Of a stretch of 64,000 nucleotides of DNA, positions 1 through 62,743 are shown in pieces. Made by a program: the position numbers and the translations under genes. The stretch is from Candidatus Omnitrophota bacterium (GTDB lineage Bacteria; Omnitrophota; Gorgyraeia; VGKH01): positions 6,312 to 70,311 of the forward strand of contig VGKH01000002.1 in NCBI GenBank assembly GCA_016867135.1. Reading direction: 5' to 3'. Under the pieces are notes generated by a model. That model was not told where the DNA came from. It searched no databases and worked only from the letters and a program-made list of their open reading frames with translations. Within the stretch, counting starts at the first letter, position 1. The number at the start of each line of letters is the position of its first letter.

Positions 1-485
1 TCTTAAGTGCGTCTAAACATGTCTCTGAAGCCATAATTTCCGTGGCTAGCCAGCACCACGAATGCGTCAACGGCAAGGGGTATCCTAAAAGATTAAAGGG
101 GCAAGAGATTAATGAGTGCGCAAAGATAGTGGCTGCAGCGGACTATTACGAGGCGCTTATGCATCCTCGCTCGCATAGGGAAAGGCTAAATCCCTATGAA
201 GCATTAAGGGTGTTAATAGAGAATAAAGAACGCTTTGATTACCGTGTTTTGAAGGTTTTAATCAAACAGATGGGCGTATATCCTATCGGAAGCCTGGTCC
301 AACTTAGTTCAGGGGAAATTGGTATCGTGGTAAAAACTAATAGCCAGTCCGCTTTAAGGCCCATAGTGAAGATTTTCTTTGATGCCCAAGGTAAAAGAGT
401 CGAGCAAGAAAAGAATATCGATTTAATAAAGTCTCCCACCATAGTTATTAAAAAACCAATCCAAGAAAAAGACCTAAATTTGTAA
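1..485 (+). CDS. HD-GYP domain protein, C-terminal part (5' end outside window; frame is open to position 3)
   Basis: HHE...GKGYP motif (HD-GYP signature) near start; ORF continues upstream without a stop. Confidence 0.7.
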   Translation, partial: LSASKHVSEAIISVASQHHECVNGKGYPKRLKGQEINECAKIVAAADYYEALMHPRSHRERLNPYEALRVLIENKERFDYRVLKVLIKQMGVYPIGSLVQLSSGEIGIVVKTNSQSALRPIVKIFFDAQGKRVEQEKNIDLIKSPTIVIKKPIQEKDLNL

Positions 486-503
486 AAATCGAGATTTATT
501 AAC

Positions 504-532
504 TTGACAGTCAGAATAAAATAACTTATTAT
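504..532 (+). promoter_or_regulatory. sigma70-like promoter TTGACA-N17-TATTAT upstream of peptidase/rSAM operon
   Basis: TTGACA 504-509, 17-nt spacer, TATTAT 527-532, 37 nt before the 569 start. Confidence 0.4.
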
Positions 533-568
533 AAGAAAAGAAGATAGGATATTTTAGTAATTTATCCG

Positions 569-1072
569 ATGGATAGCGTTGAGTTGATAAAACAGGCCGT
601 AGCTACTAAAGGCAAGGCCAATCTCTCCTTTAGCGGAAAAAGCATGCACCCAACCTTAAAAGATGCGATGGTCGTTACAATATCCCGCTTTTTGCCGGAA
701 TCCATAAGAGTTTCTGATATCATAGCCTACCAACAAAATAACCAGATAGTTGCCCACAGAGTCATAAAAATAATCAAAAATAATGGAGAAATTTCATTTA
801 TAACCAAGGGTGACAACCAGCCTTTTGGAGGAGTTAGCTTTGTCGGGCAAAAAGACTGCCTCGGAAAGATAAAGAATGCTTTTACTTCCAGTTTTTGCGA
901 AAAGAATATTTTAAATGAAAATTTATTATACAGGATGTCATACGTTTTAATAGGCAGGTTGTATTTATTTTATAGAGGCTTTATACGGCGCTACCTTCCT
1001 GAATTTTTAAGGATTATTATTCGGGGATTTGTCGGCAATGTTTATTTTTGTCTTCAAAAGTTATCAGCTTGA
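569..1072 (+). CDS. signal-peptidase-I-like (S26/S24 superfamily) serine peptidase, no N-terminal TM segment
   Basis: SGKSMHPTL (box B, Ser nucleophile), HRVIKI (box D-like with Lys), KGDNQPFGG (box E GDN); hydrophilic N-terminus. Confidence 0.55.
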   Translation: MDSVELIKQAVATKGKANLSFSGKSMHPTLKDAMVVTISRFLPESIRVSDIIAYQQNNQIVAHRVIKIIKNNGEISFITKGDNQPFGGVSFVGQKDCLGKIKNAFTSSFCEKNILNENLLYRMSYVLIGRLYLFYRGFIRRYLPEFLRIIIRGFVGNVYFCLQKLSA

Positions 1073-1082
1073 GAGGTAATTC

Positions 1083-3608
1083 ATGGTAACCCAAGTCATG
1101 CAGGAACAAAAAACGACACACTCTACGCTTAGTACGGTATATTTATATTTTTCCCAATATTGTAATTTAAGATGCCGTCACTGCTGGATAGACCCTAAGT
1201 TTGCCAAAGATAAGGCGCCTAAAAATGATGATATAGACATAAAGTCAATTATTTCTGCTTTAGAAGAATGCCGCCAGTTAGGGATGAATGCGGTTAAAGT
1301 GACCGGCGGCGAGCCTTTTCTCAGGGAAGATGTATTTGAACTTTTAGATTATTGTAAAAGTAAGAAAATACATTTAAGTTTTGAGACCAATGGCACTTTA
1401 ATTAAAGATGCCCATGCCCGCGCCTTGAAAGATGCCCGGGTGGGCTTGGTTGCTGTTTCTCTCGACGGCCCCAACGCCAAGATACATCAATTGCTAAGGG
1501 GCGTGGAAGATTCTTTTGACCAGGCAGTAGAAGGAATAAAGTCGCTCAAAGAATATGGTATCCATGTTCAAGTAATTATTTCGCTTTGGCGAAACAACAA
1601 AGATTATATCAAAGATACCATAGACTTATCCCGTTTGTTGGGCGTTAATTCGGTAAAGATAAATATTATTAGCAGTATTGCCAGAGCAGGTAAGCTTATG
1701 CAGGATAGCGAGATCTTAAGTGTTGAAGAAGTCATTGATTTTTATCAGGCATTAACTGGTCAACTGAGTAAAGAAACGCCGTTTGATGTTATTTTTGATA
1801 TTCCTCCGGCTTTTCGCTTCAAAGAAAATATCCAACAAGTAGATTCATGTTCTTGCGGTATCCACGGCATATTGGGCATATTGGGAGATGGAAAAATTTC
1901 CATTTGTGGGATAGGAAGTAGCCTGGATGCGCTTGTTTTAGGTAAAGTCGGACAGGATAGTATAAAGGACATCTGGAACAATCATCCAATCCTGGAGGAA
2001 ATCAGAGATAAAGTTCCTTATAAGTTAGAAGGAATTTGTGGTAAATGCAGTAAAAGATACTCTTGTTTGGGAAAATGTAGGGCTGAGGCTTATTATAATA
2101 GCAAAACATTTGTCTCCCCATTTTCATTTTGCCAACAGGCATACGAGCAAGGACTGTTCCCTGATTCTGCCATCAAGGAAGATTTAAAGACTAATAGATA
2201 CATAGCAAGAAATAATTGCGTAATTTCTTACCAAGATAACGGCGTAATTACAACCTGTCTTAGAAAGGGCCAGGATTATATCAAATTAGAAGGTTTTGAT
2301 GTTTGGCTTTGGGATCGATTAGGGAAAGTTGAGAAACTTTCTATTGCAGAAGTTGAATCTGAAGCCAGAAAATCTGGGATTTCTAAAGAAGGCGATAATG
2401 TTGAAAGAAAAATCGAAGACTTAATAAGATCTAATGTTGTTTCTTGTGTAGAAGAAACTATGGTTTGCAATCAAGATTTGGCGATCGACAGCAAGAAATT
2501 AAATAAGTATATGGCTATGCGCGATGCCTTGGTCAGGGAATTAAGCAGCGCCAAGAATTTCGGCAAAAAAGAGGATTTAAGCAATTTTCATCAAAACGCA
2601 GTTGAGACTATCGACGGGCATTTTGAAACCAAAGAAGTGACAGCTTCTCATTTGTTGCGTGAAAACAATCCGGCGTTGGGCGGATTAAATTACGGAGCCA
2701 AGCTTTTTGAGAAGGTCGAAAGCCTAAAGACAATAGAGAAAAACGCCAGAATTTTAGATGTGGGTTCGGGATTAGGGTTTACTTCCCGATCATTTTTACA
2801 ATCTCTGAAAGAGAAAAATCCCGATGTAGCAGCCAGCATAAGTTATATACTTTGCGATTTAACCTTTAAATTCTTGAAAAACCAAAAGAATCTCACTTCG
2901 GGATATCCTACAAGATTTATCCAGGCAAACGCCGAAGGCCCGCCGTTTAATAACAACAGTTTCGATATAATTCTTGCCAATGAAAACATCGCCGATTTTA
3001 CTTCGGTCAAGCTCAACAAGAAAGATGTTCTGGATTTCTTAGTTGGCAAGATTAAGCAAGAACATGTAGAAGACGCTTCAACAAGAAAGGCGCTAGAGTG
3101 GATAAAATCATCCTCAATTGACGTAAGCGACGCCCTTCCAGAATTCATATTTAATTTAGGGGCATTCGAGTTTATGAAGCAGATTAATCGGCTGCTAAAG
3201 GCTGGCGGCTTGGCTTTTGTTTGCGAATACGGAATCTTGCGGGGTTATCCCACCGCAGTGTATCTGCCGAATCACACCGAATATACCATACAATTTTCCC
3301 AGCTTATAAAATGCATAAAATCTTTAGGTATGGAGGTTGAGGTTCGTTCTCTTTTGGATTTTTTTGATTTTAATAAAGAAGAAGAGGTTGTCGACGAATG
3401 TTCCCTGAATTTTGTCTACGGAATTATGAAAAAAAACAATATCAATTTGCCGTATTTAGCCTATACTAAAGAAATGCTGGAAGAAAAAATAAACGGGAAT
3501 TTATTGTCTAATTTCAAGAATCTGAAATTTCTGAAGATCAGAGAAAAAATGGCTTGCATGAATATGGATACATTTTATGTTTTGTTAATTAGAAAAAAAG
3601 GAGGTTGA
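1083..3608 (+). CDS. radical SAM/SPASM-domain enzyme fused to a C-terminal class I SAM-dependent methyltransferase domain (841 aa)
   Basis: CNLRCRHC (CxxxCxxC) near N-terminus; Cys-rich SPASM-like region CSCG...CGKCSKRYSCLGKCRAEAY around aa 250-330; ILDVGSGLGFTS methyltransferase motif I around aa 560. Confidence 0.8.
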   Translation: MVTQVMQEQKTTHSTLSTVYLYFSQYCNLRCRHCWIDPKFAKDKAPKNDDIDIKSIISALEECRQLGMNAVKVTGGEPFLREDVFELLDYCKSKKIHLSFETNGTLIKDAHARALKDARVGLVAVSLDGPNAKIHQLLRGVEDSFDQAVEGIKSLKEYGIHVQVIISLWRNNKDYIKDTIDLSRLLGVNSVKINIISSIARAGKLMQDSEILSVEEVIDFYQALTGQLSKETPFDVIFDIPPAFRFKENIQQVDSCSCGIHGILGILGDGKISICGIGSSLDALVLGKVGQDSIKDIWNNHPILEEIRDKVPYKLEGICGKCSKRYSCLGKCRAEAYYNSKTFVSPFSFCQQAYEQGLFPDSAIKEDLKTNRYIARNNCVISYQDNGVITTCLRKGQDYIKLEGFDVWLWDRLGKVEKLSIAEVESEARKSGISKEGDNVERKIEDLIRSNVVSCVEETMVCNQDLAIDSKKLNKYMAMRDALVRELSSAKNFGKKEDLSNFHQNAVETIDGHFETKEVTASHLLRENNPALGGLNYGAKLFEKVESLKTIEKNARILDVGSGLGFTSRSFLQSLKEKNPDVAASISYILCDLTFKFLKNQKNLTSGYPTRFIQANAEGPPFNNNSFDIILANENIADFTSVKLNKKDVLDFLVGKIKQEHVEDASTRKALEWIKSSSIDVSDALPEFIFNLGAFEFMKQINRLLKAGGLAFVCEYGILRGYPTAVYLPNHTEYTIQFSQLIKCIKSLGMEVEVRSLLDFFDFNKEEEVVDECSLNFVYGIMKKNNINLPYLAYTKEMLEEKINGNLLSNFKNLKFLKIREKMACMNMDTFYVLLIRKKGG

Positions 3609-3609
3609 G

Positions 3610-3948
3610 TTGGGCAAAATAGGATCAGAAGGAAAGATTAAAAGAAAATATACCGAACCCTTGATTTTTGATATCGGCGGTCCTAGTTTGAACGTAGTGG
3701 GAGCTAGCGCTGTGTTATGTGCAGCTGGCTCTGGAGGTACCGCAAGATGTGGTTGCGGCGCAAGCGGTACTTATTCTCTATGCGGAACCGGGAGTAAAGT
3801 TGCCACATCTTGTGCAACCGGAGGTATATTCAACTCAAATAATAACTGCGGTGCAGGCAGCTCGGCTTCAAGATGTTGTAGCACTGGCTCTAGTGCTGGT
3901 ATCACCTGTTCTATTGGCAGCGGCGTTGGGGGGGTCACAGAGGTGTAA
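3610..3948 (+). CDS. candidate RiPP precursor peptide; TTG start 5 nt after AAAGGAGG; leader with ...LIFDIGG motif; 9-Cys Gly/Ser/Thr/Ala-rich core
   Basis: Strong SD 3598-3604; low-complexity core CAAGSGGTARCGCGASGTYSLCGTGSKVATSCATGG...CGAGSSASRCCSTGSSAGITCSIGSGVGG; sits between two rSAM/SPASM genes; codon-repetitive GC-rich DNA unlike surroundings. Confidence 0.65.
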   Translation: MGKIGSEGKIKRKYTEPLIFDIGGPSLNVVGASAVLCAAGSGGTARCGCGASGTYSLCGTGSKVATSCATGGIFNSNNNCGAGSSASRCCSTGSSAGITCSIGSGVGGVTEV

Positions 3949-4029
3949 GTTTAAAAAATAGATATTAATTTTTATTTGGTACATAATAGCCAATTAATTT
4001 CTAAATAATATAAATGGAATAAAAGAAAT

Positions 4030-5100
4030 ATGTATTCTGCCCCGCTTAATGTTTGTTTGCATATAACCAGTCGATGTAATTTGAGCTGTAAACACTGCCT
4101 TAACCGGGACCAGCCAGATTCCGAGCCTGATTTAACTACCGAAGAACTTATCAGCGTTATCGACCAGCTGGGCGAAGCAAGAGTTTTTCAGATAAGCATA
4201 TTCGGAGGCGAACCTTTAACCCATCCTGATTTTACTGTCGTGGTTGAACATCTCAATAAATATCCCTTTACACTTTCTTTAAATACCAATGCCACTTTAA
4301 TCGACCGCTCTATGGCTAAATGGCTAAAAAAACATAAAATAAGAGATGCTGTAGTTAGCTTTGATGGCTCTTGTCCTGAGATAATGGATAAAACCAGGGG
4401 CGAGGGTGTTTTTGCTAAAAATATCAAAGGCATAGAGGCGCTTTTGTCCGAAGGTATTTATGTTTTGCTTTCTGCCACTTTAACTAAAATAAATTATAAA
4501 GATGCAAGAGAAATGGTTTTGTTGGGCAAGAGATTAAAAGCCAATAAAATTCGTTTTAATCATGTATTTTTTGGTGGCAACGCCGCGTGTTTTATCAAAG
4601 AGGTTTATCTTTCCCCTGAACAGGAAAGAGAAGCTATAGAAGCGGTAGTCTCGGCAAATAAAGAATTTCCTGGCTTTATCGTTCAGGATAGCACCTATCT
4701 CAACCAGAAGGATAAATTAGAAGAAATGAAAGATTTCGAACCCGCTACAGATAAAATCACTGTTGCACCTTGCGGCGCCGCTTACCTTAAATGCGCCATA
4801 AGAGCAGATGGTTGGGTTATTCCTTGCGAGTTACTATGGGATGCTAAATGCGGCAATCTAAAGAATCAGAGTTTGACCGATATTTGGCAGAATTCCGAGA
4901 CTATGAATGAATTCAGAAGGCCGCTGGAATTAGATTTAAATGAAATACCTGAGTGCAAAGGCTGTAAATACCAATATATATGTTTTATCGGACACCGTTG
5001 TAACCCTTACTATTTTCCCGGCGGGGTTAAGGACCGTTCGGTTTATTGTTTGCTAGAGGGTAAAAAAGAGATGAGGAAGGTGGCTGATGTCGTTAAATAA
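4030..5100 (+). CDS. radical SAM/SPASM-domain peptide-modifying enzyme
   Basis: CNLSCKHC motif at N-terminus; C-terminal Cys cluster APCGAAYLKC...PCELLWDAKCGNL...CKGCKYQYICFIGHRCNPY typical of SPASM twitch/auxiliary clusters. Confidence 0.85.
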   Translation: MYSAPLNVCLHITSRCNLSCKHCLNRDQPDSEPDLTTEELISVIDQLGEARVFQISIFGGEPLTHPDFTVVVEHLNKYPFTLSLNTNATLIDRSMAKWLKKHKIRDAVVSFDGSCPEIMDKTRGEGVFAKNIKGIEALLSEGIYVLLSATLTKINYKDAREMVLLGKRLKANKIRFNHVFFGGNAACFIKEVYLSPEQEREAIEAVVSANKEFPGFIVQDSTYLNQKDKLEEMKDFEPATDKITVAPCGAAYLKCAIRADGWVIPCELLWDAKCGNLKNQSLTDIWQNSETMNEFRRPLELDLNEIPECKGCKYQYICFIGHRCNPYYFPGGVKDRSVYCLLEGKKEMRKVADVVK

Positions 5101-5356
5101 GAATCTTAAGGCGAACTCAAAGATAGTATTCCGAGAAGAAACAGATGATGCGCTTTTATTCGATCCTGATAGCGGAAATATAAAAGTTATCAATGAGACC
5201 GGAAAATTCATTTGGGCCAATTTAGACGGCAAAAACGATGAAGATTCCCTGGTAAAAAAGATTATGGATAAATTCGATATTTCCGACGAGCAAAAAGCCA
5301 GGGAAGATTTAGGTAAGTTCTTGGAAGATTTAAAAATACAGAAATTCTTGGAGTAA
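5087..5356 (+). CDS. PqqD-family protein (RiPP recognition element-like)
   Basis: 89 aa; DALLFDPDSGNIKVINETGKFIWANLDG pattern matches PqqD fold consensus (x-L-L-x-x-x-sG-x-x-x-LN-x-t-a-x-x-iW). Confidence 0.7.
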   Translation: MSLNKNLKANSKIVFREETDDALLFDPDSGNIKVINETGKFIWANLDGKNDEDSLVKKIMDKFDISDEQKAREDLGKFLEDLKIQKFLE

Positions 5357-5357
5357 G

Positions 5358-5621
5358 ATGAAGATAAAACAAGTAGAAGGCCTCCTTGTGGCTTCTTTTC
5401 CGAATAGTTCGGTAATATTTAATTGCAATAATCGCCGTTCTTATATATTGAACTATACAGCGTCTTTAATTTGGGATTTCTGTAAAAAGCCAAGAGATAT
5501 AGCTGAAATCGCCTGCTTCATTCATCGAAAATATGATTTAGTTTTATCAAAAGCACTCAGAGATGCCAGAAGTTTTGTTGCGCGACTTAAGAAAAGACAG
5601 CTTCTGTCTGTTGTCAGGTAG
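5358..5621 (+). CDS. second PqqD-like small protein
   Basis: 87 aa; SYILNYTASLIWDFCKKPRDIAEI resembles PqqD helix region; tandem with previous. Confidence 0.5.
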   Translation: MKIKQVEGLLVASFPNSSVIFNCNNRRSYILNYTASLIWDFCKKPRDIAEIACFIHRKYDLVLSKALRDARSFVARLKKRQLLSVVR

Positions 5622-5638
5622 CATAGAGAGAGACAACG

Positions 5639-6583
5639 GTGGGTTTATGTGCTTTTTTCATGAAGACCATAACTTTCAATATAGCCAATATTCCGTTATC
5701 GGTAAAATGTAGAGACGACGAAGCTCTACCGTCTTTATTCCAGCAATTCACAAGCACTGCCAAGAGACCAACTGATCGAACATGGCATTTAGAATCAGTA
5801 GGTATTAAGAAAAACAGATCCAATAAATTCCCTTCCTGTATTGCAAAGAAAATAAGCCCAATAGCAGAAAGATTTGGTTCCATCCGTAACTTTAGAGTTG
5901 ATTTAGAGAAGAAACAAAAGATTTTGTCTAGTGTTTATTCACAATTTCCGGAAGCGCTATCCGATATTTCCTTTTATTTTGACGAGCCAGTTGGAATAAA
6001 TACTAAAAAAAGAAAGATTAGGCATTTTTATACGAGCTCAACAGGATTTGATGAGATAAGGAAATTTGATTCCCGGCTGACTATTTTTGCCTATTCCCAA
6101 ATTTTAGCATCTTTAGAGGGGTTTCTTTTGCATTGCGCTTGCGTAGTAAAGAATAAAGACGCCTTTTTATTCTTTGCTAAATCAGGAGGAGGAAAATCCA
6201 CGGTTGCTAAGTTATCACGGCAATATACTGTTTTAGGAGACGATATAATTGCAGTTAGGAAAATAAACCATGATTTCGTAGCTTTTTCAACACCGTGGAA
6301 ACAAAAAAAGACTGCGAATAGACGAACCTTGTTTTCTGCTAGGATCAAAGCCGTTTTTTTCTTAAGAAAATCAAATAGAGTTTTATTTAAACCGTTAAAA
6401 TCGGATAAGGCATTAGTTAGATTTCTATCGCGATACATCCATTTCTTTTTGTATACTGAAAGGCCATTGGCAGATAAAATCTTTTTTACTGCAGCTGATT
6501 TCTTTAAGACAATCCCGGCTTACGAGATGCATTTTAGAAAATATGCAGATTTTTGGCCAAAGTTGGAGAAAATAATAAAATGA
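5639..6583 (+). CDS. HPr kinase-related P-loop protein (HprK C-terminal-domain-like)
   Basis: LLHCACVVKNKDAFLFFAKSGGGKSTVAKL...VLGDDIIAV resembles HprK C-domain Walker A and downstream Asp. Confidence 0.5.
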   Translation: MGLCAFFMKTITFNIANIPLSVKCRDDEALPSLFQQFTSTAKRPTDRTWHLESVGIKKNRSNKFPSCIAKKISPIAERFGSIRNFRVDLEKKQKILSSVYSQFPEALSDISFYFDEPVGINTKKRKIRHFYTSSTGFDEIRKFDSRLTIFAYSQILASLEGFLLHCACVVKNKDAFLFFAKSGGGKSTVAKLSRQYTVLGDDIIAVRKINHDFVAFSTPWKQKKTANRRTLFSARIKAVFFLRKSNRVLFKPLKSDKALVRFLSRYIHFFLYTERPLADKIFFTAADFFKTIPAYEMHFRKYADFWPKLEKIIK

Positions 6584-8340
6584 ACAAGCTTAACTTTAAG
6601 ATTATTTTGTCTTTTCTTAAATACTTAAAGCCATATTGGAAAAAAGAAGCTGTGGTTTGGCTTTTGAGTTTTGGAATAGCCGGGCTGTCTTTAGCTTATC
6701 CTTACATTGCCAAATTAGTTGTGGACAAGGCGTATCAGGAGAGAAACTGGACTTTATTTATTGAACTTTTGGTTACGGGAGGACTTGTATTTATAATTTC
6801 AAGTTTATTCCAGGTCGTGTCAAATTTCTTAAGAGAATACATAGATTTAAAGGTCCGCTTCGACCTGCAAAAAATTATATTCCAAAAAATAGAAAATTTG
6901 CCCTATAGCTTCTTCCAATTAAGGCCCACGGGAGAGTATATATATAAATCGCTTATTGAGAGCTCTCAGGTCTCCGACTTTATTACTTCTGTCGCCCCGG
7001 AGTTGTTTTATATTATCCCCAAATTCTTGTTGATATTCACCATTCTTTTCTTCATAAACTGGAAAATGGCTGTTTTTATTTTTGTTGTGGCGCCTGTTTT
7101 AAATATCCCGACATTTTTTATTGCGCGCAAGGTTAGAAAACAATCAGAGAAGTCGCTTAATAGTTCCCAGGACATATTGGAGACAGCCCGAGAATCATTT
7201 TCTAATATGCAATTGGTCAAGGTCTTTGGAAAAGAAAAGAAAGAAAACAGGCGTTTTGTGAAACAAATGATAAAAAATATTCGCTTAAGCATAATCAGCT
7301 TCAGATTGAACGCCTTCAGTTCTTTTCTAGAAAGCTGGGCTAATAAGTTGTTGCTTGGCCTGATAACTCTTTACGGCGGATACAACATTATCAAAGGCCA
7401 GATAAGTCTGGGCAGCTTTACCGCAATAATGCTTTATATAAATCAGCTGCTTGATTTGGAGAATTTGTTCGTTGGTTTTTTTGTGCACCGTCTTAATACG
7501 GGGCTTGTTTCCGTCCGGAGGCTTTCAGAGATTATGAATTCTTGGCCGCAAGAACTTGAAGATAAAAACACAAGGGCTATTTTACTGTCATCAGGAGAAA
7601 TAGAGTTTAGAGATGTCTCTTTCGGATATTATCCCAAGACGCCTATTTTAGAGCATATAAGTTTACATATAAAATCTGGTTCGTCAATTGGCCTGGTAGG
7701 AAACTCCGGCCGCGGCAAGACGACGCTCGTTAGTCTTATTGTAAAACTTTATCAAATTTCTGAAGGTGAAATCCTTGTCGATGGGCAGGATATTAACTTG
7801 ATAAAGAATAGCTCGCTTCGCCAGCAAATAGGAGTGGCATTGCAAAAGCCAATCTTGTGGAATGATACCATTCGAAACAATATAACATATAGTATTTTAA
7901 GCGCAACTGATGAGGAAGTTCTGCAGGCAGCAATGATTTCCTGCGCTTACGATTTTATCAAAGAGCTACCGCGAGGCTATAACACTATTATGGGAGAAGG
8001 GGCGGTGCGCCTTTCCGAAGGGCAGAAACAGAGGATTTCTTTAGCAAGGGCAATCATAAAAAAGCCAAAGATTTTAATTATAGATGAAGGCATGTCTTCG
8101 CTTGATTCTCAGACCGAGGACAGTATCATTGATAACATAAAAAAGGAGCTGAAAAACACAACCATGATTGTTATTTCCCACCGTTTATCCACAATAAAGA
8201 AGGTGGATAGGGTTTACTTTTTAGAAAAGAAAGATAAAATGAGTTTTGGCCATCACGAAGAGTTGCTACATCAAAATCCTCAATACAAAGAACTATTCGC
8301 TAGTCAGATAGAAGAAGAGCATATCAAAATAAAATCATAA
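6553..8340 (+). CDS. ABC transporter, fused permease/ATPase (type I exporter, peptide-export-like); no N-terminal C39 peptidase domain
   Basis: 6 predicted TM helices then Walker A GNSGRGKTT, signature LSEGQKQRISLARAI, Walker B ILIIDEGMSSLD, H-loop ISHRL. Confidence 0.85.
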   Translation: MAKVGENNKMNKLNFKIILSFLKYLKPYWKKEAVVWLLSFGIAGLSLAYPYIAKLVVDKAYQERNWTLFIELLVTGGLVFIISSLFQVVSNFLREYIDLKVRFDLQKIIFQKIENLPYSFFQLRPTGEYIYKSLIESSQVSDFITSVAPELFYIIPKFLLIFTILFFINWKMAVFIFVVAPVLNIPTFFIARKVRKQSEKSLNSSQDILETARESFSNMQLVKVFGKEKKENRRFVKQMIKNIRLSIISFRLNAFSSFLESWANKLLLGLITLYGGYNIIKGQISLGSFTAIMLYINQLLDLENLFVGFFVHRLNTGLVSVRRLSEIMNSWPQELEDKNTRAILLSSGEIEFRDVSFGYYPKTPILEHISLHIKSGSSIGLVGNSGRGKTTLVSLIVKLYQISEGEILVDGQDINLIKNSSLRQQIGVALQKPILWNDTIRNNITYSILSATDEEVLQAAMISCAYDFIKELPRGYNTIMGEGAVRLSEGQKQRISLARAIIKKPKILIIDEGMSSLDSQTEDSIIDNIKKELKNTTMIVISHRLSTIKKVDRVYFLEKKDKMSFGHHEELLHQNPQYKELFASQIEEEHIKIKS

Positions 8341-9545
8341 TGGTCAAGATATCTCAGTCAAAAGAGAATAAAGCTTGGTTTAGCTCCCAAACGATTAATT
8401 TTTTAACCTGTTGTAGCCGCACAATTATAGACGAAGAAGTTACAGGGAAAATAAAATCTTTAATAGCGCCTGATTTAGATTGGCCAGCCATAATTATAAA
8501 AGCCAAAAATCAAGGGGTGGCACAATTTTTATATTTCCACCTGGCAAAATTAGAAGAAGTTTGGTCGATTGTGCCCGATGAATTAAAAAAAGAACTAAGA
8601 GAATTTTATCATAGAATTTTAGCTAATAATTGGTTGATTCAAAACGAGCTTAAGAAAATAATCCCGTTATTAGATCGTGTTTGCATCGAAGTTATTGTTT
8701 TAAAAGGAGCAAGCCTTCTTGGGTCGGTATATAAAAATATAGCCTTTCGTCCGATGATCGATGTGGATTTATTGGTTAGAAAACAAGATCTGCCCAGGGC
8801 AAAAACTATTCTACATGATATAGGATATCGAAAGCCAGATTTTCTAGATCAACAGAGTTTGGAGAAATTCGGAGGAGAAATTCATCTTTATAAAAATGGA
8901 GGAGTTTTTCTAGATATTCATACGACTTTATCCCAGTATGAGCGTTTTGAGGATATTCTAAAAATCGATTCCGACGAAGAACTTTGGAATAAAACAAGAA
9001 GATTTAATAATGGTGAGGGCGAAATTAGGATGCTTGGGCCCGACCATCTGCTTATGCATTTATGTATGCATCAGGCATTGGCTCATTGGTTTGCTGGATT
9101 ATTTCGTTTCTGCGATCTTCGTGAAACCATTTTGGCTTATAAAGAAGAATTGGATTTTGAATATATAATAAAAAAAGCAAGAATATACAAGATAAATAAA
9201 ATTCTTTATTTTGCCCTTTCTTCTGTGCAGGAACTTTTTGGTCCGATATTGCCTCAAGATTTCTTAGCTAATCTGCAGTATAAACATAGGCTAACTATTA
9301 GTATAGGCTGTTTTCTTTTTAGAAAAAAGATCTTATCTTTACCTGACAAAGAAGTAGCATTTCGGAAATCTATAAATCAGTTGTTTTTGATGGATAATTT
9401 TTCAGACTTGCCTCAAATTATATTTAAAGGGTTTTTTCCTTCCGATGATTGGCTCAGGTATAGATATGGAGTCAGAAGTAGGATAAAATTATTTTTTTAC
9501 CGTTTAATCCACCCCTTCATTACAGCATTTAATATTCTTTCCTAA
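8340..9545 (+). CDS. uncharacterised nucleotidyltransferase-family protein (PF14907-like)
   Basis: FRPMIDVDLLVRKQD motif typical of this nucleotidyltransferase family; size ~400 aa. Confidence 0.5.
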   Translation: MVKISQSKENKAWFSSQTINFLTCCSRTIIDEEVTGKIKSLIAPDLDWPAIIIKAKNQGVAQFLYFHLAKLEEVWSIVPDELKKELREFYHRILANNWLIQNELKKIIPLLDRVCIEVIVLKGASLLGSVYKNIAFRPMIDVDLLVRKQDLPRAKTILHDIGYRKPDFLDQQSLEKFGGEIHLYKNGGVFLDIHTTLSQYERFEDILKIDSDEELWNKTRRFNNGEGEIRMLGPDHLLMHLCMHQALAHWFAGLFRFCDLRETILAYKEELDFEYIIKKARIYKINKILYFALSSVQELFGPILPQDFLANLQYKHRLTISIGCFLFRKKILSLPDKEVAFRKSINQLFLMDNFSDLPQIIFKGFFPSDDWLRYRYGVRSRIKLFFYRLIHPFITAFNILS

Positions 9546-62346: not shown

Positions 62347-62422
62347 TGCCCCTGTAGCTCAGTCGGCAGAGCACGTCCTTGGTAAGGACGGGGTCATCGG
62401 TTCAATTCCGATCGGGGGCTCC
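62347..62422 (+). tRNA. tRNA-Thr (anticodon GGT)
   Basis: 76-nt cloverleaf, 7-bp acceptor stem, anticodon loop TTGGTAA, TPsiC arm GGTTCAATTCC, encoded CCA. Confidence 0.9.
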
Positions 62423-62465
62423 AGAGGAAAATTTTTGTCGTTTTTATAAGCCAAAGTAGTTTATA

Positions 62466-62648: not shown

Positions 62649-62721
62649 AGGAGCGTCGGTTAACGGTAAACCACCGGTCTCCAAAACCGGGACTGCGGGT
62701 TCAATTCCTGCCGCTCCTGCC
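62649..62721 (+). tRNA. tRNA-Trp (anticodon CCA)
   Basis: 73-nt cloverleaf, anticodon loop CTCCAAA, conserved position upstream of secE. Confidence 0.9.
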
Positions 62722-62743
62722 AATTGATCAAAACAATAAAATT

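Follow-up and report, generated by a model that had tools for sequence, protein, structure and literature searches.

The stretch of DNA analysed here, hereafter the window, is 64,000 nucleotides of contig VGKH01000002.1 from a Candidatus Omnitrophota bacterium (assembly GCA_016867135.1). Our subject is a small open reading frame (ORF) at 3610-3948 on its forward strand, which lies within a run of tightly packed genes (569-9545), all read in the same direction. Comparison with orthologous loci confirmed that this ORF is a conserved gene, and we put at roughly three in four the probability that it encodes the precursor of a RiPP (a peptide that is synthesized by ribosomes and modified after translation) of the type found in SynChlorMet (SCM) cassettes, modified through the pathway that we propose below for the surrounding operon. 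The parts of the precursor gene on which the argument turns are these:

3597..3604 (+), Shine-Dalgarno sequence AAAGGAGG, 5 nt before the TTG start
3610..3948 (+), putative precursor peptide gene, ScmA-like CxxG-repeat peptide, 112 aa, TTG start
3640..3681 (+), leader recognition motif K11-R-K-Y14-T-E-P17-L-I19-F-D-I-G23-G24 (from the family logo)
3682..3702 (+), subclade-conserved block P-S-L-N-V-V-G, residues 25-31, between the Gly-Gly and the first Cys (from the five-way alignment)
3718..3945 (+), core of seven C-x-x-G units: C37, C47/49, C58, C68, C80, C89/90, C100 (from the repeat analysis)

The translated product has 112 residues, MGKIGSEGKIKRKYTEPLIFDIGGPSLNVVGASAVLCAAGSGGTARCGCGASGTYSLCGTGSKVATSCATGGIFNSNNNCGAGSSASRCCSTGSSAGITCSIGSGVGGVTEV. 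Gly (24), Ser (17), Ala (11), Thr (9) and Cys (9) make up 70 of the 112, and the nine Cys stand at positions 37, 47, 49, 58, 68, 80, 89, 90 and 100. A preliminary description of this DNA, made from the letters alone, had reported a TTG-start ORF of this length with nine Cys and a perfect Shine-Dalgarno sequence 5 nt ahead of it; both exist as described, the GGAGG core occupying 3600-3604. The Shine-Dalgarno sequence does not overlap the stop of the upstream gene, as had been stated, but lies inside its final codons, with the TGA stop at 3606-3608, and the proposed division into a 26-aa leader and an 86-aa remainder has to be recounted as 24 aa up to the Gly-Gly followed by 88 aa. The TTG is the most upstream start codon of the frame.

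The region had also been called GC-rich and triplet-repetitive. The first holds: GC content is about 0.48-0.53 over the precursor region (0.49 for the ORF, 0.52 for the core), compared with 0.38 for the whole window. The second does not, as Tandem Repeats Finder detected no DNA tandem repeat in the precursor gene and the repetition is at the level of the peptide motif only. The raised GC content is due to the amino-acid composition, because the excess sits at codon position 2 (Gly, Ala, Ser, Thr and Cys codons): GC at codon positions 1, 2 and 3 is 0.43, 0.66 and 0.37, with position 3 at the genome level. Such a pattern marks a frame that is translated and not a spacer rich in GC. Neither tblastn nor a motif scan found a second precursor copy within the window, and no terminator or attenuator hairpin was found between the precursor gene and the ScmE-like gene that follows it.

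A sceptical reading would be that this is a chance open frame in a low-complexity, GC-rich spacer, from which no peptide is made. The composition is indeed of low complexity, other frames also give ORFs of 55-80 aa, and as a lone query against 5.8 billion proteins the peptide returned no match at E<=10. Look-ups by exact sequence, for the peptide itself, the alternative-frame ORF and four of its orthologues, also came back empty; however, they missed even orthologues for which other sources have gene calls, so that they are uninformative on annotation. The 841-aa protein encoded upstream has an identical copy in a Candidatus Omnitrophica metagenome-assembled genome and other orthologues that are 60-68% identical. 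Two Omnitrophota contigs (L001 and L002) are fully syntenic with the window and have an ORF of 117-118 aa in the precursor slot, with the leaders KKKYSTPLVFDIGG and KKKYLAPLIFDLGG, respectively, the window leader being KRKYTEPLIFDIGG. The Omnitrophota genomes L008 and L009 also carry a syntenic small ORF in that slot. In the five-way alignment every Cys column is aligned and the leader is the same, so that the search for homologous loci with a conserved small ORF, leader and Cys spacing, which the preliminary description had proposed as a check, was positive in four Omnitrophota orthologues. The proportion of nonsynonymous differences (pN, 0.24-0.50) is below that of synonymous differences (pS, 0.48-0.91) in all pairs of the five, with synonymous sites near saturation. 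The frame at 3610-3948 is the only one open in all five orthologues; the 80-aa ORF in another frame (3719-3961), rightly suspected of being spurious, is interrupted by 4-8 stops in the window gene and its four orthologues. Three independent assemblies also contain the precursor gene without a single base difference, and the gene callers used on them report a 112-aa product that has no Pfam family. The conserved frame, leader motif and Cys register, the pN/pS relation, the closed alternative frames, the strong Shine-Dalgarno sequence at ideal spacing and the match to a family model described next refute the chance frame as far as sequence comparison allows, and we leave it next to no probability. 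The ORF can be taken as confirmed, by these comparisons, to be a real, conserved gene under purifying selection.

The wider family of the peptide was delineated from its neighbours. A genome-wide scan with an alignment of ScmF, a radical S-adenosylmethionine (SAM) enzyme of the cassette, gave 80 loci in Omnitrophota, Desulfobacterota, Chloroflexota, Planctomycetota, Nitrospirota, Aminicenantes, methanogens and others. Loci were then scanned for small frames holding several C-x-x-G motifs; after curation this left 54 CxxG-repeat peptides in 46 of 88 sources, beside ScmF or ScmE homologues and in more than 10 phyla; 19 of 51 begin at most 400 nt downstream of the ScmF radical SAM domain. Their leader logo reads K-K-K-Y(95%)-E-x-P(100%)-x-[L/V/I]-x-D-[L/I/F]-G, and their core repeat C-x-x-G(88%)-x-x-A(49%)-x-x-x; successive Cys are most often 10 residues apart (124 of 274 intervals), and Ser is enriched at +4/+5. 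The window peptide has the features by which the family is defined, namely a Y-x-x-P-x-[LIV] leader, at least four C-x-x-G units about 10 residues apart and a position beside a ScmF homologue. Its Cys spacings are 10, 2, 9, 10, 12, 9, 1 and 10, with 9-12 residues from unit to unit and a Cys pair in two of the units. A hidden Markov model (HMM) trained only on the 49 peptides that do not belong to the Omnitrophota subclade scored it at 36.7 bits, when 1000 shuffles of the same composition reached a mean of -8.1 and a maximum of 4.9 bits.

The NCBIfam database holds a curated model of the predicted SCM precursor, TIGR04252 (ScmA), with 49 positions and a cutoff of 35 bits. It matches 23 of the 54 family peptides at E<=10 (best 6e-7), and ten members checked singly scored 17-24 bits, none of them at the cutoff, in alignments running from Y-E-K-P onward. 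Judged by these scores, TIGR04252 is very narrow relative to a broad ScmA-like family, of which the window peptide is a divergent member outside the coverage of the model. Because the model is narrow, most precursors of the family will be annotated as hypothetical proteins or missed.

Some loci encode more than one such peptide: L023, L043 and L072 have three different CxxG-repeat precursors each, and L054 and L037 two each, those of L037 having 13-14 Cys and being less regular than other family members. In L001, another frame at 7139-7318 (+), adjoining the precursor stop (7155-7157), contains a 59-aa stop-to-stop stretch (…CKMGSSVGINYQCGVGNSATRACCYGESASTGCVTGHSALVLCNTGSGF), with five further CxxG decapeptide units but neither a leader nor an obvious start. 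It may stem from a longer core through a frameshift, from a duplicate that has decayed, or from an error in assembly.

The other features of the operon, in order, are as follows:

504..532 (+), best sigma-70-like promoter match, TTGACA-17-TATTAT, 11/12 (a match to consensus only; total matches are not above those in shuffles)
569..1072 (+), archaeal/endoplasmic-reticulum-type signal peptidase I-like (SpI-like) serine peptidase, SipW/LppS-like (TIGR02228, 63.8 bits, cutoff 51.85)
1083..3608 (+), ScmF-like radical SAM/SPASM domain (residues ~1-365) with a class I SAM methyltransferase domain (~540-720) (TIGR04251, Pfam)
4030..5100 (+), ScmE-like radical SAM/SPASM enzyme (TIGR04250; Pfam Radical_SAM and SPASM, 4e-11)
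5087..5356 (+), PqqD/RiPP recognition element (RRE) 1, ScmD-like, overlapping the end of the ScmE-like gene (TIGR04248, 6e-16; PF05402, 4e-14)
5358..5621 (+), PqqD/RRE 2, best match a Bacillota lasso-type RRE (NF033536 lasso_PqqD_Bac, 6e-9)
5639..6583 (+), ScmC family protein, putative HprK/PEPCK-fold P-loop kinase with Walker A SGGGKST (fold search)
6553..8340 (+), MsbA-like ATP-binding cassette (ABC) exporter without C39 domain (TIGR02203, 1e-100; public gene calls start at 6580)
8340..9545 (+), NTP_transf_5 nucleotidyltransferase, LppN/PsmN-like tailoring enzyme (PF14907, 2e-47)

The promoter match precedes the first cassette gene, which encodes the SpI-like protein. The closest PDB sequence to this protein is human SEC11, and it has the motifs SM (25), HR (63) and GDN (81-83); because it lacks a hydrophobic, transmembrane segment (maximum KD19 1.11), we read it as soluble. 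The related Omnitrophota locus L003 (6826-8004; same in L004) encodes a 392-aa protein with a methyltransferase as its N-terminal half and the SpI-like domain as its C-terminal half.

The ScmF-like protein matches Pfam Radical_SAM, SPASM and Methyltransf_11/25/28, and its CX3CX2C motif and full 7-Cys SPASM pattern are invariant in the alignment of ScmF homologues. The methyltransferase fusion is limited to the window, L001, L002 and L003/4, and absent from L008 and L009. The ScmE-like enzyme also has CX3CX2C, and the PapB family is among its NCBIfam matches (5e-19). The first PqqD is fused to ScmE in L003. The second is present in 11 loci, 9 of which also have the SPase-I-like gene; these loci are phylogenetically non-independent. 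The two RREs appear to differ in role, and we propose from this distribution that PqqD 2 is the partner of the peptidase and/or the kinase. The kinase assignment of ScmC comes from matches to PEPCK and HprK in the fold search, as a sequence search of ScmC against the PDB gave nothing and Pfam Hpr_kinase_C was sub-threshold on ScmC homologues.

Among 87 SCM-type loci searched by tblastn with the window proteins, homologues were found of PqqD in 72, the ABC exporter in 41, ScmC in 35, NTP_transf_5 in 34 and the SpI-like peptidase in 30. By these counts, the module of peptidase, kinase, nucleotidyltransferase and exporter, which resembles that of the linear polyphosphorylated peptide (LPP) pathway discussed below, is a recurrent part of SCM cassettes and not a local accident.

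Several observations were made in passing on methylation and gene content in related loci. In L003 (16225-17310; same in L004) a gene for a PRMT5_C/PRMT_C-type protein arginine methyltransferase-like protein adjoins ScmC, and in both L003 and L004 an inserted AbiEii toxin pair separates the precursor from ScmC. Arg occurs in the cores of the window, L001, L002, L003, L015 and L064, all of them loci whose homologous methyltransferase is linked to ScmF or lies nearby, often just before Cys; its contexts in the window core are TARC and ASRCC. L008 and L009, the closest loci without the methyltransferase, have no core Arg, although the sample is tiny and many methyltransferase-free loci do have Arg.

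The leader supplies the link between the precursor and the RREs. The family motif Y0-x-x-P3-x-L5-x-x-x-G9 shares its register with the RRE-binding leader motif of lasso peptides, YxxPxL (PMC10368454), and with the LPP leader motif [Y/W]xxPx[L/V/I/F/A], itself shared with lasso peptides (PMC13381572). G23-G24 of the window peptide correspond to G9(-G10) of the family motif. These two glycines were the basis for the earlier proposal of a double-glycine-like leader, and the composition of the core for that of a resemblance to class II microcins. On such a reading, a peptidase-containing ABC exporter would cut after G23-G24 and release a Gly/Ser-rich bacteriocin or microcin-like toxin. The F-D-I-G-G sequence is present, GG is kept in four of the five Omnitrophota orthologues, the operon does encode an ABC exporter, and the core is rich in Gly and Ser. 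However, the exporter comprises ABC_membrane and ABC_tran only, its match to NHLM_micro_ABC1 begins at profile position 141, and Pfam and NCBIfam scans found no C39 peptidase domain on it or on the other genes of the operon. The fifth orthologue, L008, has GS, and family-wide the two glycines are found at only 37% and 24%. The seven residues that follow GG, part of an Omnitrophota subclade block x-x-[LI]-[ND]-V-[VL]-G-x-[S/T], are conserved no less strongly than the preceding block, F-D-I-G-G forms the end of an RRE-register Y-x-x-P-x-[LIV]-x-x-x-G motif, and the operon has a dedicated SpI-like peptidase. Because of the absence of a C39 peptidase, the poor conservation of GG and the conservation that continues beyond it, double-glycine processing is disfavoured and we consider it very improbable; the microcin resemblance is unsupported.

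For an SCM-type precursor, the alignment places the boundary between leader and core probably in or just after the P-S-L-N-V-V-G block, and the SpI-like protein (569-1072) is, by analogy with LppS, the likely leader peptidase, proposed to be RRE-dependent. An A-x-A signal-peptidase site, A32-S33-A34, was tried and rejected as the cleavage site, as it is not conserved among orthologues. Nor can the cleavage site of LPPs be carried over, because their FET/xxS motif is absent.

The pathway that we propose would begin with binding of the Y14-x-x-P17-x-I19 motif by one or both RREs, which would present the peptide to the enzymes. The two radical SAM/SPASM enzymes would then act on the seven CxxG units, each Cys sulfur most likely being joined to a nearby carbon, for which we take the Gly at +3 as first candidate; if linked as Cys(i)-Gly(i+3) alpha-thioethers, the units would make the core a chain of small four-residue rings. 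The methyltransferase domain fused to ScmF would add one or more methyl groups, ScmC would phosphorylate Ser or Thr, by analogy with the LPP and paeninodin-type pathways, and the phosphate may be decorated by the nucleotidyltransferase. Removal of the leader, between G24 and C37, would fall to the SpI-like peptidase and not to a C39 double-glycine peptidase. Export would be through the MsbA-like pump and may be linked to the polysaccharide locus next to the cassette.

The preliminary description had already named the many Cys of the peptide as obvious substrates for the SPASM radical SAM enzymes on either side. This view is supported, as is that of a precursor gene translationally tight behind the ScmF-methyltransferase gene. 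Like sactipeptide and ranthipeptide loci, the present one combines radical SAM/SPASM maturases that have auxiliary clusters with Cys donors in the core, here nine. The constant distance from each Cys to a Gly at +3 suggests that every repeat undergoes a single intramolecular reaction with a set acceptor. Within the explanation as a real RiPP, small Cys-Gly thioether rings are the chemistry that we prefer, as a best guess at roughly even odds by analogy with known maturases.

Alternatively, the precursor could be genuinely of the SCM type with its Cys not made into thioether rings at all. It might undergo other radical SAM chemistry, such as thio-oxazole-type heterocycle formation, formylglycine-type oxidation, or epimerisation or C-methylation of neighbouring residues; its free thiolates might serve as metal ligands, as in a metallophore or a metallothionein-like peptide; or lanthionine-like rings might form after kinase-dependent activation of Ser. 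Both radical SAM proteins match, with similar E-values, AhbD/NirJ, SbtM, anSME-like, WgkB and DynA families, whose chemistries are diverse, and their PDB relatives are remote. The Ser enrichment at +4/+5 and the presence of a kinase also speak for this group of options, and for the lanthionine option in particular C-x-x-G-S is common in the window core. Against it, the Gly that almost always stands at +3 and the regularity of the 10-residue period agree with an intramolecular reaction in each repeat on a fixed acceptor, thioethers are the commonest outcome for Cys-rich substrates of radical SAM/SPASM enzymes (SkfB, CteB, PapB, GggB), and no lyase or cyclase gene was seen in Pfam and NCBIfam scans of the operon. 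Taken jointly, we regard these non-thioether options as unlikely.

Several points have to be set against the reading of the ORF as the precursor of an SCM-type RiPP matured in the way proposed. ScmF, ScmE, ScmD and ScmC are the top NCBIfam matches for the respective window genes, but all fall below the equivalog cutoffs: the ScmF-like protein has 338.8 bits for TIGR04251 (cutoff 400), the ScmE-like protein 167 bits for TIGR04250 (cutoff 400), the ScmD-like protein 58 bits for TIGR04248 (cutoff 100) and ScmC 45 bits for TIGR04249 (cutoff 125), an identical protein carrying PF27840. The window peptide has no match to TIGR04252 even at E<=10. The closest PDB sequences to the ScmF-like protein, PqqE, SkfB, SuiB and CteB, are all remote and catalyse other reactions, and those nearest to the ScmE-like protein, SkfB (2e-11) followed by CteB, SuiB and anSME, are remote as well. 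An AF2 model of the linker and methyltransferase region gave a pLDDT of 43 and no usable fold. There are two radical SAM enzymes where one might do, which leaves the proposed pathway without an explanation for the second. The window leader, Y-T-E-P-L-I-F-D-I-G-G-P-S-L-N-V-V-G-A-S, lacks the distal HQxIxFET cleavage motif of LPPs. LppK did not accept Thr (PMC13381572), whereas in the orthologues the hydroxyl residue conserved after V-V-G-x is Ser in some and Thr in others. Finally, truncated contigs and common descent confound the co-occurrence statistics.

Directly downstream of the cassette, with no change of strand, lies a polysaccharide export and synthesis locus (9635-33792, +), the genes of which were scanned up to 23620. 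It encodes a Wza-like Poly_export/SLBB protein, a Wzz-GNVR tyrosine-kinase type protein, Wzy_C, two flippase-like Polysacc_synt proteins, a Polysacc_synt_2 dehydratase, GT4 glycosyltransferases and methyltransferases. The gene just upstream of the cassette (42-485, +), cut by the start of the window, encodes a protein with an HD_5/HD-GYP-type domain, whose orthologue holds the same position in L001, L002, L003, L008 and L009; it may be a regulator, or the arrangement may merely be conserved gene order. The only Rfam/ARAGORN matches in the window are tRNA-Thr(GGT) at 62348-62423 (+) and tRNA-Trp(CCA) at 62649-62722 (+).

The SCM cassette, defined in silico in 2012, has been in TIGRFAMs/NCBIfam for more than 10 years, and we found no relevant publication or known product under its names, its TIGR accessions or PF27840. 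The present comparison shows that its precursors form a much larger and more varied family than the curated ScmA model covers, with most members below or outside that model, and provides a simple, testable repeat grammar, C-x-x-G every ~10 residues after a YxxPxL-type leader. It also shows that SCM cassettes of many phyla carry part or all of the SpI/HprK-kinase/NTP-transferase/MsbA module that was characterised only in 2026, in the LPPs of Bacillota. A bolder generalization would be that ScmA-type peptides are a widespread uncharacterised RiPP class of anaerobes, in which the two radical SAM enzymes turn each C-x-x-G decapeptide into a small Cys-Gly thioether ring (seven beads here) and the peptide is then methylated, phosphorylated and possibly sugar-nucleotide-decorated by the LPP-like module, relieved of its leader by a cytoplasmic signal-peptidase-I homologue, and delivered or covalently joined to the capsule or exopolysaccharide. 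We hold this to be speculative and, as a whole, rather doubtful. If true, it would unite the 2012 SCM cassette and the 2026 LPP pathway as one super-family and mean that LPP-type machinery reaches far beyond Bacillota. The locus may also offer a route to a new radical SAM cross-link topology. The type of gene was predictable from its context; it is the size of the unmodelled family, its clean pattern of repeats and the connection between SCM and LPP that make this old orphan system directly testable. For annotation, the lesson is that such precursors can be recognised through their neighbours when sequence search alone fails.

Among known systems, the double-glycine bacteriocins and class II microcins resemble the window peptide in a GG ~24 residues from the N-terminus, a Gly/Ser-rich core and an ABC exporter, and differ in that the window has no C39 domain, an unconserved GG, conservation past it, and a maturation apparatus based on radical SAM enzymes and RREs. 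The phosphorylated lasso peptides (paeninodin, pseudomycoidin and Bsf) share the YxxPxL leader, a discrete PqqD-like RRE and tailoring by a kinase and a nucleotidyltransferase (PMC8498205, PMC10368454), the HprK-like kinase and nucleotidyltransferase being tailoring enzymes of lasso and LPP clusters (PMC8498205, PMC13381572). However, we do not count the window peptide as a lasso peptide: no lasso cyclase (Asn-synthetase-like) or B2 cysteine peptidase was found in Pfam and NCBIfam scans of the genes from 42 to 9545, and the window core lacks the Gly1/Asp8-type ring-forming pattern.

Two thioether systems offer models for the core. Type 2 sactipeptides (streptosactin/GggB, QmpB) likewise have Cys donors and a radical SAM/SPASM maturase; streptosactin contains two unnested four-residue sactionine rings (PMC9389541), the same ring size as the hypothetical Cys(i)-Gly(i+3) link. 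That type differs from the window in having two rings instead of seven, 14-mer products, unrelated leaders and clusters, and no kinase, SpI or nucleotidyltransferase. In freyrasin (PapA), PapB installs six thioethers in repeated CX3D motifs (PMC9413430), and the likeness lies in a core built of repeats (six CX3D/E units) in which one radical SAM/SPASM enzyme closes each small ring. Unlike freyrasin, the window CxxG repeat has no acceptor Asp or Glu, the sole acidic residue of the core being E111, after the last repeat, and repeat length, leader and accessory genes differ as well.

The accessory genes find their closest counterpart in the LPP clusters (Popov et al., Nat Commun 2026, PMC13381572), which combine SpI, an RRE, an HprK kinase, an NTP transferase and a pump resembling MsbA, and are embedded in capsule loci, with YxxPx[V/L] leaders (PMC13381572). 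There, leader cleavage by SpI requires presentation by the RRE, and Ser3 of the core is polyphosphorylated by the kinase; the leader consensus is YxxPxVLxHQxIxFETxxS, with cleavage after T(-1) and phosphorylation at Ser3 (PMC13381572). The window likewise has a SpI-like peptidase, an RRE as a discrete protein, a kinase resembling HprK, an NTP transferase and an exporter resembling MsbA, matched by family or fold and not by Lpp sequences, together with a YxxPx[LIV] leader motif and a setting in a capsular/exopolysaccharide locus. In contrast, LPPs are described as linear and restricted to Bacillota, with radical SAM enzymes unmentioned (PMC13381572), whereas the window has two radical SAM/SPASM enzymes and a methyltransferase, a Cys-repeat core, an Omnitrophota host and no distal HQxIxFET/xxS. 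Filing the system as an LPP was rejected on account of the radical SAM enzymes, the missing distal leader motif and the Cys-repeat core. The two radical SAM/SPASM genes and the Cys-repeat core of the window argue for cross-linking beyond LPP phosphorylation.

The nearest relative overall is the SCM system itself. The window has the same neighbour set as top matches, all of them below the equivalog cutoffs, and a precursor gene directly after ScmF, and the peptides that match TIGR04252 share with the window peptide a Y-E-x-P-x-L leader and a C-x-x-G repeat core. We rejected a filing as TIGR04252 ScmA, as the peptide does not reach the 35 bits which that assignment takes. The gene order also differs, ScmF-ScmA-ScmE in the window as against ScmD-ScmE-ScmF-ScmA in the SCM cassette, and the window adds a methyltransferase fused to ScmF, a second RRE and an extra conserved L-N-V-V-G block in the leader. 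We rate the system as a variant of the SCM kind, itself defined in silico only, and its gene content suggests that it works like an SCM-type RiPP cassette with an accessory module like that of the LPP pathway.

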